Source: a virus
Lineage: Duplodnaviria > Heunggongvirae > Uroviricota > Caudoviricetes
Length of the DNA stretch: 64,000 bases
Direction: 5' to 3' (one strand)
IMG/VR virus record: IMGVR_UViG_2541047715_000004
A model generated the notes under the pieces. The model had not been told where the DNA came from, searched no databases, and was given only the letters and a program-made list of their open reading frames with translations. Position numbers and translations under genes: made by a program. Positions 15,603 to 56,944 of this stretch are shown here, in pieces (the first letter of the stretch is position 1; each line of letters begins with the position of its first letter).

Positions 15603-15677
15603 GATGGTGTAGCTCAGCGGTAGAGCAGTTGGCTGTTAACCAACTGGTCGGTGGTTCGAATCCACCCACCATCGCCA
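15603..15677 (+). tRNA. tRNA-Asn (GTT)
   Basis: Cloverleaf by eye: acceptor GATGGTG/CACCATC, D stem GCTC/GAGC, anticodon loop CTGTTAA, T loop TTCGAAT, CCA end. Confidence 0.8.
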
Positions 15678-15682
15678 ATTTA

Positions 15683-15769
15683 GGGGAGTTAGTCCGTAGA
15701 GGTAGCGGTGTAGACTGTAAATCTACTGTCATTGCGACTCGGGTGGTTCGACTCCATCACTCCCCACCA
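15683..15769 (+). tRNA. tRNA-Tyr (GTA), long variable arm
   Basis: Acceptor GGGGAGT/ACTCCCC, anticodon stem GTAGA/TCTAC with loop CTGTAAA, T loop TTCGACT, CCA end; D arm atypical. Confidence 0.65.
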
Positions 15770-15773
15770 AATT

Positions 15774-15849
15774 GCCGGTTTAGCTCAGTTGGTAGAGCGC
15801 CTGCCTTGTAAGCAGGATGTCAGCGGTTCGAGTCCGTTAACCGGCACCA
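15774..15849 (+). tRNA. tRNA-Thr (TGT)
   Basis: Acceptor GCCGGTT/AACCGGC, D stem GCTC/GAGC, anticodon stem CCTGC/GCAGG with loop CTTGTAA, T loop TTCGAGT, CCA end. Confidence 0.8.
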
Positions 15850-16076
15850 ACACAACAGGAAAGAGCATTGAAAACCGCCGAGACTGCCCTGTTTTAAGCG
15901 TAAGTCCGTGCAAACGTCATACAGTGCTCTTTTCGTTGTGGTTGATGCGCAGACTGATGCGCGGAAAGAAATGCCCCAGCGACACACGAGGCGAGTTCAC
16001 ACACTGCAATGCAGTCAGTAGCCGGGGTCGCTAAGCCGGAGATCAGTACCGGTAACCACAACAATTGGAGAGTAGG

Positions 16077-16163
16077 GAGCATGGTGCTCAAGCGGTCTTG
16101 AAAACCGTCCCATTGCGCAAGCGATGATGGTTCGATTCCATTACTCTCCGCCAGACACAGCGT
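16077..16163 (+). tRNA. tRNA-Ser (TGA), long variable arm
   Basis: Acceptor GGAGAGT/ACTCTCC, anticodon stem GCGGT/ACCGT with loop CTTGAAA, T loop TTCGATT, CCA end. Confidence 0.6.
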
Positions 16164-16307
16164 TGAGCGGTTTGGCCTTTTAATCACCCAGATTAAGACT
16201 CCGCTAACATAAACCAGACCGCTCAACGCTGTGATAGACAATTACGGCAGACGTTCTTAACCATAGCTTGCTAACATCCTAGCAACACTTTTTTCAGCGC
16301 AAAATTC

Positions 16308-16330
16308 AAAGGGGCTTCGGCCCCTTTTTT
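16308..16330 (+). terminator. rho-independent terminator after tRNA cluster
   Basis: GGGGC-TTCG-GCCCC hairpin followed by TTTTTT. Confidence 0.8.
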
Positions 16331-16457
16331 ACTGGGTTGACTCCAGAATATTTCCAGGTATGGTTTTACCACTTTTGGGTCTTCATTTAGCAACGGCAGC
16401 ATTAGACTGCCTGCATGTGGGTGACAGGATGTGGCAGAAAAACATGGAGATAAGCCA

Positions 16458-17012
16458 ATGAATAAGCGCAACCTCAATATTCTTGCCTCTCTGGTAATCA
16501 TGCTCGCTCTGACGGGATGTAACGAATCGGAGATCGACAAAATTACCTTAATAGGTAGAGATAAAAGCGATCTTGCACAGAACTATAAAGCCCAGTTCCA
16601 AGAGCAAACACCCAGTATTGAGGTATTCGCTCTTCAAGATAAAAATGCACCGAATGAACAGGAACCACATACGCATGGAAATCTCATTGATGGAAAGGTT
16701 GAATCGTCTTTAACGACAAATGTCGGTAAGTATACGTTCATGCAGATCGGTGAAATGATGACAAGGGAGTACGGAAAACCGGTAGCAACGAAAGACAGAA
16801 TTTTCGACCAAGAAGCTATCTCAGGTATGGACTGTATTGAGACAAAGACCTGTGGTGCAGGCAAGTATTATGAAGTCTATCGAGGGAAGGATCGTTTAGT
16901 AATGGTGATTAACGGTGCAGGCTTTGTGAACGAAAAAGAGGGTGTAACATTGCTTTCTATCACCGATAAGATGATTAAAGTTTCACGCTTGAAAGAAGAC
17001 AAACGCAAATAG
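16458..17012 (+). CDS. lipoprotein of unknown function
   Basis: Start set at MNKRN; signal peptide with lipobox LTGC; about 184 aa. Confidence 0.55.
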   Translation: MNKRNLNILASLVIMLALTGCNESEIDKITLIGRDKSDLAQNYKAQFQEQTPSIEVFALQDKNAPNEQEPHTHGNLIDGKVESSLTTNVGKYTFMQIGEMMTREYGKPVATKDRIFDQEAISGMDCIETKTCGAGKYYEVYRGKDRLVMVINGAGFVNEKEGVTLLSITDKMIKVSRLKEDKRK

Positions 17013-17019
17013 CCATAGA

Positions 17020-17832
17020 TTGTTTAACACTGCGAGGTTAAATGTGAGTAACAGAGATGATTTTTCCCCATCGGTGAAGCGAACACTAGCCGAACGCGTA
17101 GGCTGGAAGTGCTCTTATCCTGGCTGCAACCAGACAACTGTAGGTCCAGATAGCAGTGATACAAACAGCAGGATTAATAATGGTATTGCGGCACATATTA
17201 CAGCAGCAGCGCCAGGTGGACCGAGATATGATCCTAGCTTAACCCCAGAACAGCGAAGCTCGATTGATAACGGTATATGGATGTGTCGTTCACATGGCGC
17301 ACTCATTGACTCTGACTACACTATCTATTCCGTTGAGCAATTGAAAAACTGGAAGCAGCTGGCCGAAACTCAACAATCTCTTCTGCTACAGATGACGCAC
17401 CAGGTGAGTCAGAACAATTACTCAGAAAGAGACGTCGGTGTTTTAAAAGCCATTACTGATATTTTTAATTACAACTACCTCCAAATGCTGAAGAGCGAAC
17501 AGTTCCGGGCAAAAGTTAGCACCGACATTACCGACCCTCTCTACGCATTTGATAATATTGCCCATAACCCCTTTTACAGCTTCAATGATGTTGTTTTAGA
17601 AACAATCCGTATGGAGTTGGTCGGGAAAGTGAACAACTTTTGGGCGCTGTTCAGAGAACATTCTGCTGGAGGGCTTGGGTATTATGATTATATCGATATC
17701 CCCCATATCAGACGTTTTTATCCTGATCAGGTTGAGCGCTATTACGGAATCATTAACCAAACACAAGATCTGGCGTATGAAATCAGCATAACGGCACAGA
17801 AATTACTCGAAATTAGAGCAAAACTGCCGTGA
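17020..17832 (+). CDS. HNH-motif nuclease-like protein
   Basis: CSYPGC ... AAHITAAAPGGPRYD ... NGIWMCRSHGALID arrangement typical of HNH zinc-finger nucleases; 270 aa with extra C-terminal domain. Confidence 0.55.
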   Translation: MFNTARLNVSNRDDFSPSVKRTLAERVGWKCSYPGCNQTTVGPDSSDTNSRINNGIAAHITAAAPGGPRYDPSLTPEQRSSIDNGIWMCRSHGALIDSDYTIYSVEQLKNWKQLAETQQSLLLQMTHQVSQNNYSERDVGVLKAITDIFNYNYLQMLKSEQFRAKVSTDITDPLYAFDNIAHNPFYSFNDVVLETIRMELVGKVNNFWALFREHSAGGLGYYDYIDIPHIRRFYPDQVERYYGIINQTQDLAYEISITAQKLLEIRAKLP

Positions 17833-18069
17833 GTCATGACGATATCCCTCTACATAGTAGAGGGATAATGCACAAATAATAGGTAATGACTTACCTATTA
17901 TTTGTCGGTATAGTTCTTTCATTATTCACTTAAAAGGACTCAATATGGGAAACAAACGTAAACAGGCGCGTCGCGCAGCTCATCAGGCACTGAAGTCAAA
18001 ACCATGTATCCACTACTGCGAAATTGGCACAATCATCGTTAATGAACAGCAGTTGCACGAGGTGAAGTG

Positions 18070-18315
18070 ATGAAAGTCGTTATCTACGGACGAGATAACT
18101 GTTCATACTGCAAACGTGCGGTCGAGCTGGCGAAGCAACTAAAGGGACATGGCTACGGTGATTATGAGTACATCGACATCACCACTGCCGGTATCGACAA
18201 GGAAAAACTTAGTGAAATTGTTGGTAAACCGGTAGAGACTATCCCCCAGGTACTGATCAATGGCCAACCGATTGGCGGATACACAGAACTGGCTGCATAC
18301 GTCAGCACCCTCTGA
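18070..18315 (+). CDS. glutaredoxin (NrdH/NrdC-like redoxin)
   Basis: CSYC active site near N-terminus; about 81 aa. Confidence 0.8.
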   Translation: MKVVIYGRDNCSYCKRAVELAKQLKGHGYGDYEYIDITTAGIDKEKLSEIVGKPVETIPQVLINGQPIGGYTELAAYVSTL

Positions 18316-34872: not shown

Positions 34873-34932
34873 TCTTGAAAATATATAAGTACTTACTTAT
34901 TATTTTCGCATAAAAACCACATAGGAAAACAC

Positions 34933-40218: not shown

Positions 40219-40472
40219 CCCTCCAGATCGTATATTGGCGTAGATAGAATCTACGCCCCCTCAAAATAGCTCTCATAGCGTTCTACAGTGATCCTGTCTT
40301 ATTTTTAGTCATACAGACAAGCAAAGTTGCGCCACGATAAATAGGTATATACTTACTTATAAATTTTGTATATTAAGGCGCTCGTTTCATTCCTAATATA
40401 CCGTTATGCATAGTTGTTTACCTCCTCATTGCTCTTAGAATTTGTATCAAAATAACCACAAAGGAAAAATAC

Positions 40473-45016: not shown

Positions 45017-45089
45017 TTTCATTGATAGGTAAGTGCTTATCTATTAACATGGGCCACTATATTTAGTGGCCCTCTTTATTTGGTGATAC

Positions 45090-54425: not shown

Positions 54426-54608
54426 CGTCCCCCTACTGAAAATAAAGCCCATAGAGAGCTTTATAGTGCTGGGTAAGCCAATCACATATCCAGCACCACA
54501 AAAACGCGCCAGAGAGCTTCTCGTTTGCATTTCTGGCGCGTTTTATTTGATTGCCAGACATAAAATCAAATGCAAAAATAGGTAATCACTTACCTATCGA
54601 GAAAGACG

Positions 54609-56205: not shown

Positions 56206-56796
56206 ATGACGACGAAGACACCAGCCCGATCGCAAGCAAAAACTCGCAAAAATGACAAAAACAAAAATTCTCCCCGCACCAATTCCACAACGCCTGTCGT
56301 AGAGTTCAATCCCCAGCTTAAAACCGTGAAAATCTTCAGTGATGGCTCTTGCCTTAAAAATCCGGGTGGCCCGGGCGGTTACGGTATAGTTCTCCAGTAT
56401 GGTGGTGAGGAACGCGAGTTCTCAGATGGTTTTCATAGCACCACCAATAACCGCATGGAGATGATGGGGGCACTTATCGGGCTGGAGCGTTTGAAATATC
56501 CATGCAACGTTATTTTGTACTCTGATAGCCAGTATCTGAAAAACGGCATGACACAGTGGATGAAATGGTGGAAACGCAATGGATGGATGACTTCTGACAA
56601 AAAACCGGTAAAGAATGTTGATCTGTGGAAGCGTCTGGATGAGGCCGCAAGTCGACATAATGTTCGCTGGAAGTGGGTTAAAGGTCACGCCGGGCATCGT
56701 GAAAATGAAATATGTGATCGACTCGCGAAGATCGCAGCTTTTTCAGCAGCAGATATGCCTCACAAGAAAGATATTGGTTTTGTTTATAACAAGTAG
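56206..56796 (+). CDS. rnhA: ribonuclease HI with basic N-terminal extension
   Basis: KIFSDGSC...GGPGGYG and C-terminal HAGHxxNExxDxLA RNase HI motifs; about 40-aa Lys/Thr/Asn-rich N-terminal extension; start ambiguous (table ORF from 56152). Confidence 0.8.
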
Positions 56797-56944
56797 TAAG
56801 TAAGTGTTTACCTATCATTTTAAATCATGTATCTTATCAGCGTCAGGATGACAATGTGTCGGTAAGACACAGTTCCAGGATGGAACGAGAAAGGCGGCTG
56901 GCGATCGCCAGCCGCAACTCTTTCTGACACTGGATGGAGTCCAC

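Follow-up and report, generated by a model that had tools for sequence, protein, structure and literature searches.

The 64,000-nucleotide stretch considered here (the window; IMG/VR virus record IMGVR_UViG_2541047715_000004) is an SSU5-like phage-plasmid. Behind its tRNA cluster it carries two small genes on the + strand. The first (16458-17012) encodes a lipoprotein of 184 amino acids (aa). The second (17044-17832) encodes a protein of 262 aa with an HNH head and a helical tail, which resembles a four-helix bundle and gives the protein the name used below, HNH-4HB. The two are independent accessory genes stacked in one slot, not one system. We consider it an even bet that HNH-4HB is a candidate anti-phage nuclease working on its own, and that the lipoprotein next to it is an unrelated outer-membrane moron.

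The HNH head and its helical tail

Both open reading frames (ORFs) are real genes. They match PHROG families from end to end (phrog_15156 for the lipoprotein, E 6e-114; phrog_21516 for HNH-4HB, E 4e-181) and have dozens of conserved homologues. Compared with a close allele, the HNH gene shows a ratio of non-synonymous to synonymous substitution rates (dN/dS) of 0.23. It opens with a GTG at 17044 behind a GAGG ribosome-binding site; PGAP calls the same start in an identical plasmid, and the homologues open with MSNRDDF-like residues. From this start it follows that lipoprotein and HNH genes are separated by 31 nt, not by 8. An earlier, sequence-only reading of this DNA had rightly placed two adjacent genes here, but its start of the pair at 16431, its length of 270 aa for the second product and its 8-nt gap have to be replaced by 16458, 262 aa and 31 nt.

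Residues 1-119 (17044-17400, + strand) make up a His-Me finger (HNH) domain of the Cap5/SPARHA type plus a linker helix. The hallmarks of the Cap5-SPARHA clade are found: a beta-beta-alpha-metal fold, a structural zinc site, and a general-base His together with an Asn. The zinc ligands are C23, C28, C81 and H84. The HNH motif quoted in the sequence-only reading is borne out, since C23/C28, AAH51I, N76, C81 and H84 are invariant in 40 homologues, as is D89 in the family. In wider relatives position 84 is occupied by His or Cys, while C23, C28 and C81 stay invariant. N76 aligns with N71 of AcaSPARHA. H51 is not a zinc ligand, and it is invariant in the 40 family members and in 19 wider relatives; because of this invariance, catalysis may be argued to have been kept. 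H80 of AcaSPARHA has been mutated, and H53 of MllaSPARHA as well as N71 and H80 of AcaSPARHA were reported to be catalytic; Cap5/SPARHA heads were further reported to be activated by tetramerisation (PMC12738770).

The head matches several PADLOC models (PDC-M68A, 6e-25; CBASS endonuclease effector, 8e-20; SduA, 1e-16; SAVED_HNH, 8e-17), and all these matches are confined to residues 3-130. Among solved structures the best match by sequence is the SPARHA HNH-APAZ protein 9om4 (9e-11), again over residues 8-105 only. Weaker Foldseek matches include the HNH domains of McrA and ScoMcrA. The full-length protein finds no match in PADLOC v2, Pfam or NCBIfam, which agrees with the earlier impression that this is not a described system. 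Judged by its sequence, the head is of the immune-effector type and related to Cap5 and SPARHA. The AlphaFold2 model of the entire protein has a mean pLDDT of 87.6.

The tail is a different matter. It comprises residues 124-262 (17413-17829, + strand) and is an uncatalogued, all-helical module folded like a four-helix bundle; the pLDDT exceeds 90 across most of it. It had been called an uncharacterised domain before, and rightly so, for Pfam, NCBIfam and PADLOC contain no match to it. In the Protein Data Bank (PDB) it has generic four-helix-bundle neighbours only. A word-indexed search yielded nothing but close relatives. An exhaustive HMMER search of 1.84 billion representatives with a profile of the C-terminal domain detected 156 proteins.

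The architectures were counted in the best 150 of these 156 proteins, which are cluster representatives. The Cap5-type HNH head precedes the module in 18 of the 150. In about 50 the module follows a single N-terminal transmembrane (TM) helix, and in about 30 an N-terminus of 81-135 aa; those of the latter that were scanned proved to be other HNH families (PF01844, HNH_3). Larger heads (15 of 150) include TIR, Schlafen/AlbA_2, protein kinase, DUF4062 and Mrr-like nuclease domains. PADLOC types these heads as defence (ZorE, ThsB, SpbK, PD-T4-6, PDC-S60), yet never matches the tail. Such a pattern, in which one small module stays constant while the killing heads are exchanged, marks an immune sensor or regulator.

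The commonest architecture with this module is a protein of ~165 aa with a single N-terminal TM helix and the consensus M-x-D-W-I-Q-W (P0163, P0171, P0180 and about 50 others). By their make-up these TM-4HB proteins may be membrane-acting siblings of the nuclease. The contigs of the TM-4HB protein P0171 and of the TIR-4HB protein P0218 are too short to show gene context.

The HNH-4HB family spans several phyla. Full-length homologues with 35-58% identity occur in Klebsiella, Rouxiella, Morganella, Lelliottia, Shewanella, Pseudomonas, Vibrio, Massilia, Dyella and Firmicutes. The phage records that match the protein number five, and they match its N-terminal half only. The gene occurs solo in hotspots of defence genes and mobile elements: alone in the tail-fibre hotspot of a P2-like prophage, flanked by tail-fibre genes on one side and gpU/tape measure on the other; as a cassette in the superintegron of V. 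parahaemolyticus; in a P4-type integrase island with AlpA; and in the cargo slot of Pseudomonas integrative and conjugative elements (ICEs), with or without DarT-NADAR. Elsewhere a homologue stands beside a restriction-modification (R-M) system of the MvaI/BcnI type (type II) and an AAA_15/21 pair, at another locus beside a type I R-M system, and others adjoin a reverse transcriptase with SLATT_5 and HipA, or ParE. Being found as a single-gene integron cassette, the HNH-4HB protein must be a self-sufficient unit.

In the Pseudomonas ICEs, a gene of the XRE-type helix-turn-helix (HTH) family opens the slot with HNH-4HB (L009, 5702-5998; L020, 4025-4342). In L009 it ends 3 bp before the HNH-4HB homologue; in L020 the DarT-NADAR genes separate the two. 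The HTH gene may regulate the slot locally.

How could such a protein work? In a cell at rest it would be inactive. The C-terminal module would sense a cue of infection, be it a phage protein, a nucleic acid or a small molecule, or would relieve an autoinhibition. The HNH heads would then oligomerise, by analogy with Cap5 and SPARHA, and the assembled nuclease would cut DNA and thereby block a superinfecting phage or a competing element, most likely by abortive infection. A wider proposal is that the bundle of ~140 aa is the hallmark of an undescribed and widespread family of immune sensors, each a single protein, in which the bundle switches on whatever head it is fused to (Cap5-type or other HNH, membrane helix, TIR, Schlafen, kinase), and that the copies in the window, in pHCM2, in Shigella and in E. 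coli are working anti-phage genes. This we advance tentatively; it is conceivable, but we would rather bet against it than on it.

Two accessory genes in one slot

The sequence-only reading had taken lipoprotein and nuclease for one self-contained operon. This view finds no support: the two genes occur apart, and their alleles reassort. The lipoprotein is found without HNH-4HB in P1-like IncY plasmids, in the C. freundii P2 plasmid, where the HNH gene is deleted, and in p20170902CC-1, where it is replaced. Conversely, a Raoultella SSU5-like plasmid has the HNH gene without the lipoprotein, after an unrelated coiled-coil gene. Clustering of every ORF up to 4 kb away from 22 full-length HNH loci revealed no common neighbour beyond backbone genes of related elements. 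A lipoprotein homologue is absent near 19 of the 22; it is present in three enterobacterial SSU5-like loci only.

The comparison with the Enterobacter plasmid L016 is instructive. The lipoprotein is 68% identical, the HNH protein 98%. Resolved by stretch, identity amounts to 94-96% in promoter and signal peptide, 50-78% in the mature lipoprotein and 98-100% in HNH. In other plasmids the ~68% lipoprotein allele is combined with HNH alleles of 93%, 87%, 81% or 57%. As read from these alignments, the alleles of the two genes reassort, with a breakpoint between the genes.

The lipoprotein itself is real, as is its position after the terminator of the tRNA cluster, and the lipobox LTGC reported earlier is confirmed by LTGCN in 13 of 13 full-length homologues. 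The gene likely starts with the ATG at 16458 rather than with the GTG at 16431, because it is preceded by a GGAG at a distance of 9 nt and is the Met chosen in the annotations of other lineages. An N-terminal signal peptide ends in the pattern [LVI][ASTVI][GAS]C, with the lipobox reading MNKRNLNILASLVIMLALTG/C, i.e., LTG/C. The match to Pfam LPAM_1 stays below threshold (14 bits versus a cut-off of 20 bits). Position +2 is Asn, and the mature part contains two conserved Cys. The Asn at +2 points to the outer membrane as destination, and the protein probably resides there.

Its family is narrow: 16 clusters among 5.8 billion proteins, every one at least 59-61% identical, and restricted to enterobacterial phage-plasmids of the SSU5-like and P1-like kinds. 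In the P1-like IncY plasmids the gene is a single-gene insert beside ref and cre, and the ORF alone is shared. In the comparison with L016 the divergent mature part is flanked by sequence of 94-100% identity (window 16500-17000 versus L016 3700-4210). This pattern suggests that an old divergent allele entered a young backbone by recombination, which is typically seen with surface or exclusion proteins; dN/dS between the allele classes is not estimable, dS being saturated. The AlphaFold2 model (pLDDT 54.7, from a shallow alignment of 14 sequences) is unusable. The lipoprotein is an independent moron, and our guess is that it has a surface or exclusion function.

The slot that houses both genes lies between the terminator of the tRNA cluster and grxA/integrase. 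Its contents vary among relatives. In phage Cyrano, which has the same backbone as the window, homology to the window breaks off at 16330 and sets in again at 18051, and the slot holds a gp49-family gene only. In pHCM2 of S. Typhi and in pA_CitB of Citrobacter the order is a 242-aa gene, lipoprotein, HNH, phoH, a small hypothetical ORF and gp49; the Enterobacter plasmids have the same set without the 242-aa gene. In the window lipoprotein and HNH are kept, phoH, the small ORF and gp49 are deleted, and a 41-aa remnant ORF is left. The C. freundii P2 slot contains the 242-aa gene, lipoprotein and phoH; here HNH is precisely deleted (window 17017-17810 is missing), and the deletion spares the last 22 nt of HNH and the hairpin at 17843-17867. 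In E. coli p20170902CC-1 the lipoprotein is followed by an unrelated gene of 431 aa on the opposite strand, for which Pfam and PADLOC yield no match. The Raoultella plasmid, finally, has a 203-aa coiled-coil gene, an HNH homologue (53% identical) and a gene with an Acb2/Tad1 hairpin. A preprint on these elements noted transposon insertions near tRNA loci. All this marks the slot as a hotspot of cargo, and the element can do without the HNH gene.

Two of these cargo genes deserve a remark. The 242-aa gene, absent from the window, lies between the tRNA terminator and the lipoprotein in the pHCM2/Citrobacter relatives (L017, 3194-3922; L028, 1694-2422; L026, 1694-2422). Its product contains the motif RNIMAH (Rx4H), weakly matches a HEPN model of PADLOC (RTasHEPN, 4.6e-4) and may be another uncatalogued defence candidate. 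The Acb2/Tad1 hairpin gene of Raoultella (L024, 7006-7251; Pfam 3e-15), between the HNH homologue and grxA, likely encodes an anti-CBASS/anti-Thoeris sponge, which thus adjoins a candidate defence gene.

How common is the cargo? Of the PLSDB plasmids, about 743 have an SSU5-type ligase (at least 60% identity), 76 the full-length HNH gene and 108 the lipoprotein gene; the HNH gene is thus carried by ~10% of SSU5-type plasmids. The pair is present in 20 of 5,426 complete E. coli genomes, every time on a plasmid, with both genes annotated as hypothetical. The DNA of the pair is 99.6-100% identical in non-mobilizable plasmids of E. coli, E. fergusonii and Shigella sonnei, which measure roughly 72-198 kb and in most cases about 110 kb, and 81-88% identical in plasmids of Enterobacter, Salmonella and Citrobacter. 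What the variable slot holds here is accessory cargo that is exchanged horizontally. This agrees with the earlier proposal of horizontally acquired cargo, and the comparison of presence and absence across relatives, then recommended as a check, has now been made: the pair is not universal.

The surroundings are those of a typical SSU5-like phage-plasmid, with primase, ligase, tRNA, grxA, integrase, repressor and cobT-like genes. On its left the slot is bounded by the intrinsic terminator that closes the tRNA cluster (16308-16333, + strand), a GC-rich inverted repeat reading AAAGGGGC-TTCG-GCCCCTTT followed by a T run; at this very terminator the homology to phage Cyrano ends. A sigma-70-like promoter candidate ahead of lipoprotein and HNH (16337-16364, + strand; TTGACT-16-TATGGT) is a consensus match only, in a stretch that is 94-96% conserved in L016. 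From this promoter of their own, the two genes are probably co-transcribed in the lysogenic or plasmid state.

On the other side the situation is less clear-cut than had been claimed. The pair had been described as bounded by terminators, which is correct upstream only. Directly after the HNH stop there is a hairpin with a perfect 11-bp stem (17843-17867, + strand), but it lacks a T-tract, and a terminator scan downstream of the HNH gene found none at 17843-17867. It is followed by an AT-rich, operator-like palindrome with 15-bp arms (17872-17905, + strand; ATAGGTAAT), which overlaps a promoter-like site of the next gene (17886-17914, + strand). The palindrome AATAGGTAA-N4-TTACCTATT occurs in the window at 17878-17899, 34880-34901, 40340-40361, 45024-45045, 54577-54598 and 56795-56816, i.e., six times versus 0.01 expected (at most three mismatches). 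Since it recurs in intergenic sites only, 30-150 nt 5' of + strand ORFs, it should be a dispersed operator of the element that serves the next promoter here. In a plasmid with an HNH allele of only 57% identity, the palindrome retains 93%. The palindrome/promoter at 17872-17914 belongs to the downstream phoH promoter, not to the pair. The six palindromes look like the operator set of a single phage-plasmid regulator.

The right part of the slot is the 41-aa ORF (17945-18070, + strand), a 5' remnant of phoH joined at ~18041-18047 to sequence just upstream of grxA (18067-18315); its stop (18068-18070) makes it overlap the grxA start by 4 nt. Phage-plasmids of Enterobacter, Citrobacter and Salmonella have kept all three genes that the window lineage has lost. 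Beyond grxA follow the integrase gene (18526-19629) and a divergent HTH repressor gene.

To the left, the tRNA cluster (15603-16153) has four genes, for tRNA-Asn, -Tyr, -Thr and -Ser. Its content differs among relatives: tRNA-Tyr (15683-15769) is absent from phage Cyrano, which has three tRNAs versus four. The spacer from tRNA-Thr to tRNA-Ser measures 217 nt (15850-16066). Between tRNA-Ser and the terminator lies a 20-nt inverted repeat, 95% complementary, with arms 38 nt apart (16156-16233).

Objections and competing explanations

A number of observations weigh against HNH-4HB as a self-sufficient defence nuclease. One concerns the active site. The second catalytic His of the clade is missing: H80 of AcaSPARHA and the second H of the "HH" of Cap5 align with G85. 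Position 85 is G, A or S in 17 of 17 sampled relatives of the sub-clade, including members fused to TIR or AAA domains. With Gly in place of a catalytic His, the active site is non-canonical and could be weak or inactive. D89, one helical turn after G85, might serve as substitute metal ligand, if one goes by its position. In the relatives fused to TIR or an AAA ATPase the head might be a DNA binder instead of the effector. As to the tail, we infer its sensor role purely, given its generic structural neighbours, and the geometry between the two domains is uncertain in the model (pTM 0.55). The contexts are those of about a dozen loci rather than a statistical enrichment, and no catalogue names the family. 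Last, in the SSU5-like enterobacterial plasmids examined (window, L016, L017, L028-L030), every HNH copy stands directly after the lipoprotein, and in that lineage some functional link between the two is conceivable.

With these reservations, other explanations have to be weighed against the solo nuclease of abortive type. HNH-4HB might be a direct, non-abortive restriction nuclease, modification-dependent (type IV-like) or other, in which the tail reads foreign DNA and the HNH head cuts it in the manner of McrA- or END-type enzymes. The Foldseek matches to McrA and ScoMcrA point this way, as do the R-M systems that adjoin the gene in two loci, and solo nucleases with a reader but without a methylase are known defence genes, e.g., the END nucleases (PMC12191111). 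The tail, however, matches no known reader of DNA modification: for the readers of type IV HNH restriction enzymes (SRA, EVE, McrA-N, iEndoIII etc.) it has no Pfam or PDB-specific match, although sequence alone may miss a new reader. Its presence behind single TM helices and behind TIR, kinase and Schlafen heads is more easily reconciled with a general sensor or regulator than with a DNA reader, and the closest HNH relatives, Cap5 and SPARHA, are collateral nucleases activated by oligomerisation. Direct restriction is therefore an unlikely explanation.

Alternatively, the HNH-like head may be catalytically impaired and the protein may serve the element itself, as a DNA-binding regulator or as an accessory in recombination, replication or packaging. 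The Gly in place of the second catalytic His would favour such a role, and genes of the replication type (ligase, primase, helicase, grx) are nearby. Yet a gene that only about 10% of the family carry and that viable plasmid lineages have cleanly lost hardly looks like a servant of the element; SSU5 machinery is missing from the integron cassettes, ICEs and chromosomal islands in which its homologues live, and the general-base H51, though not a zinc ligand, has remained invariant in family members and wider relatives alike. We regard this possibility as improbable.

Phage-plasmids need stability functions, and some homologues lie beside toxin genes of the ParE, HipA and YafO types. HNH-4HB could thus be a toxin-like module of addiction or competition that kills phage-plasmid-free cells or rival elements and so aids maintenance. 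The 22 loci, however, do not share a conserved small antitoxin partner, and an exported lipoprotein cannot neutralise a cytoplasmic nuclease. Moreover, an unopposed toxin in a single-gene integron cassette would be lethal unless it were self-inhibited, and with self-inhibition the idea converges on the solo nuclease. In its proper form we find it quite improbable.

The assumption that lipoprotein and nuclease form one two-gene system of exclusion or abortive infection draws on their layout, on the same strand, 31 nt apart and behind a single upstream promoter-like site, and on the constant order of the two in the enterobacterial SSU5-like plasmids. It fares poorly with the facts described above: either gene is found without the other, 19 of 22 homologous loci lack the lipoprotein, the alleles have recombined independently with a breakpoint between the genes, and a narrow family of 16 clusters is paired with one that is spread over several phyla. 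We give it very little credit. Adjacency in the cargo slot of a phage-plasmid does not make a system; here two morons reassort independently.

The idea of a homing endonuclease (or another selfish HNH enzyme) that brought along a passenger gene, as had also been considered in the sequence-only reading, can hardly be upheld: HNH nucleases commonly are homing enzymes, and the gene is polymorphic for presence and absence at one site, but its head is Cap5/SPARHA-like and not of the phage homing type (best viral structural matches E >=9e-3), just five phage records match and only in the N-terminal half, the Pfam scan detected no DNA-binding module of the NUMOD, AP2 or IENR type, and the gene sits intergenically in cargo slots of many unrelated elements, not within or beside a conserved target gene.

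Relation to known systems

Membership in several known classes was considered and rejected. CBASS, SPARHA, Shedu and PDC-M68 are all defined by second domains and partner genes that HNH-4HB lacks. An END nuclease has an inactive EndoIII domain as reader (PMC12191111), and HNH-4HB has no such match. A phage packaging HNH protein would not be expected in ~10% of SSU5-type plasmids, deleted in viable lineages and sited between tRNA cluster and grxA. A type II toxin-antitoxin pair was dismissed, as the 22 loci share no neighbour and the adjacent protein is an exported lipoprotein. Nor is this a colicin-type operon: the nuclease has 262 aa, an N-terminal HNH and no further domains, and the lipoprotein has 184 aa and lies upstream, whereas a lysis lipoprotein has ~50 aa.

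The HNH-4HB family thus appears to be uncatalogued. The literature on PDC-M68 and on HNH defence genes in integrons and P2 hotspots yielded no paper that describes it. A preprint that applied DefenseFinder 1.3.0 reported no defence system in pHCM2-like plasmids; pHCM2 carries the HNH-4HB gene, and near-identical copies reside in plasmids of Shigella sonnei and E. coli. If HNH-4HB were a working defence gene, it would stand for a compact family with a sensor module that is absent from Pfam, PADLOC and, indirectly, DefenseFinder. It would implement the effector-swapping logic of CBASS and Thoeris effectors without a signalling partner, and would offer a simple model for a small helical domain that gates a Cap5-type nuclease. 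It would also reveal a hidden defence function in clinically common SSU5-like phage-plasmids, including pHCM2 of S. Typhi, with relevance to phage therapy and to the competition between mobile elements. Comparable defence candidates are many; this one is marked by its clear modular signature and by its clinically common phage-plasmid host.

One close relative in design is Cap5, the HNH-SAVED effector of CBASS (PDB 7rwk, 8fmf). Both proteins begin with a His-Me finger whose zinc site is of the CCC(H/C) form; they share the general-base His of the AHI motif, the Asn, a conserved Asp and a linker helix, and in both the effector is N-terminal and the regulatory domain C-terminal. HNH-4HB has no SAVED domain, however; its tail is an unrelated helical bundle, the HH of Cap5 reads HG, and no CD-NTase is among its neighbours (lipoprotein, phoH remnant, grxA, integrase). 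The HNH-APAZ protein of SPARHA, the effector of a short prokaryotic Argonaute (pAgo; PDB 9om4), shares the head (9e-11), but HNH-4HB lacks APAZ, no ORF of pAgo size is nearby, and the catalytic H80 of AcaSPARHA is G85. The SPARHA head degrades DNA collaterally once activated by oligomerisation (PMC12738770). Protein A of PDC-M68 is matched by the N-terminal 125 residues at 6e-25, over profile positions 4-125 of 253 only; PDC-M68 is a multi-gene candidate, in contrast to the solo HNH-4HB with its different C-terminal half. From Shedu, the model of an HNH-headed SduA variant is matched at 1e-16, over its N-terminal positions 15-132 only, and Pfam detects no DUF4263 PD-(D/E)xK domain.

The lipoprotein has counterparts of its own kind. 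T5 Llp, Cor and lambda Bor are phage-encoded outer-membrane lipoprotein morons. The protein of the window differs from them in its larger size (184 aa) and has no sequence similarity to any of the three; what it shares with them is the state of a small exported lipoprotein encoded by a stand-alone accessory gene of a temperate element.

Effectors of CBASS, Pycsar and Thoeris and the Avs-type proteins place swappable effectors on a constant sensor. Compared with these systems, the HNH-4HB module is a mere helical bundle of ~140 aa, without NTPase, SAVED/CARF, known ligand or signal-producing partner gene. The likeness to effector-swapping single-protein defence genes lies in the constant tail, to which heads of the TM, TIR, nuclease, kinase and Schlafen kinds are fused.

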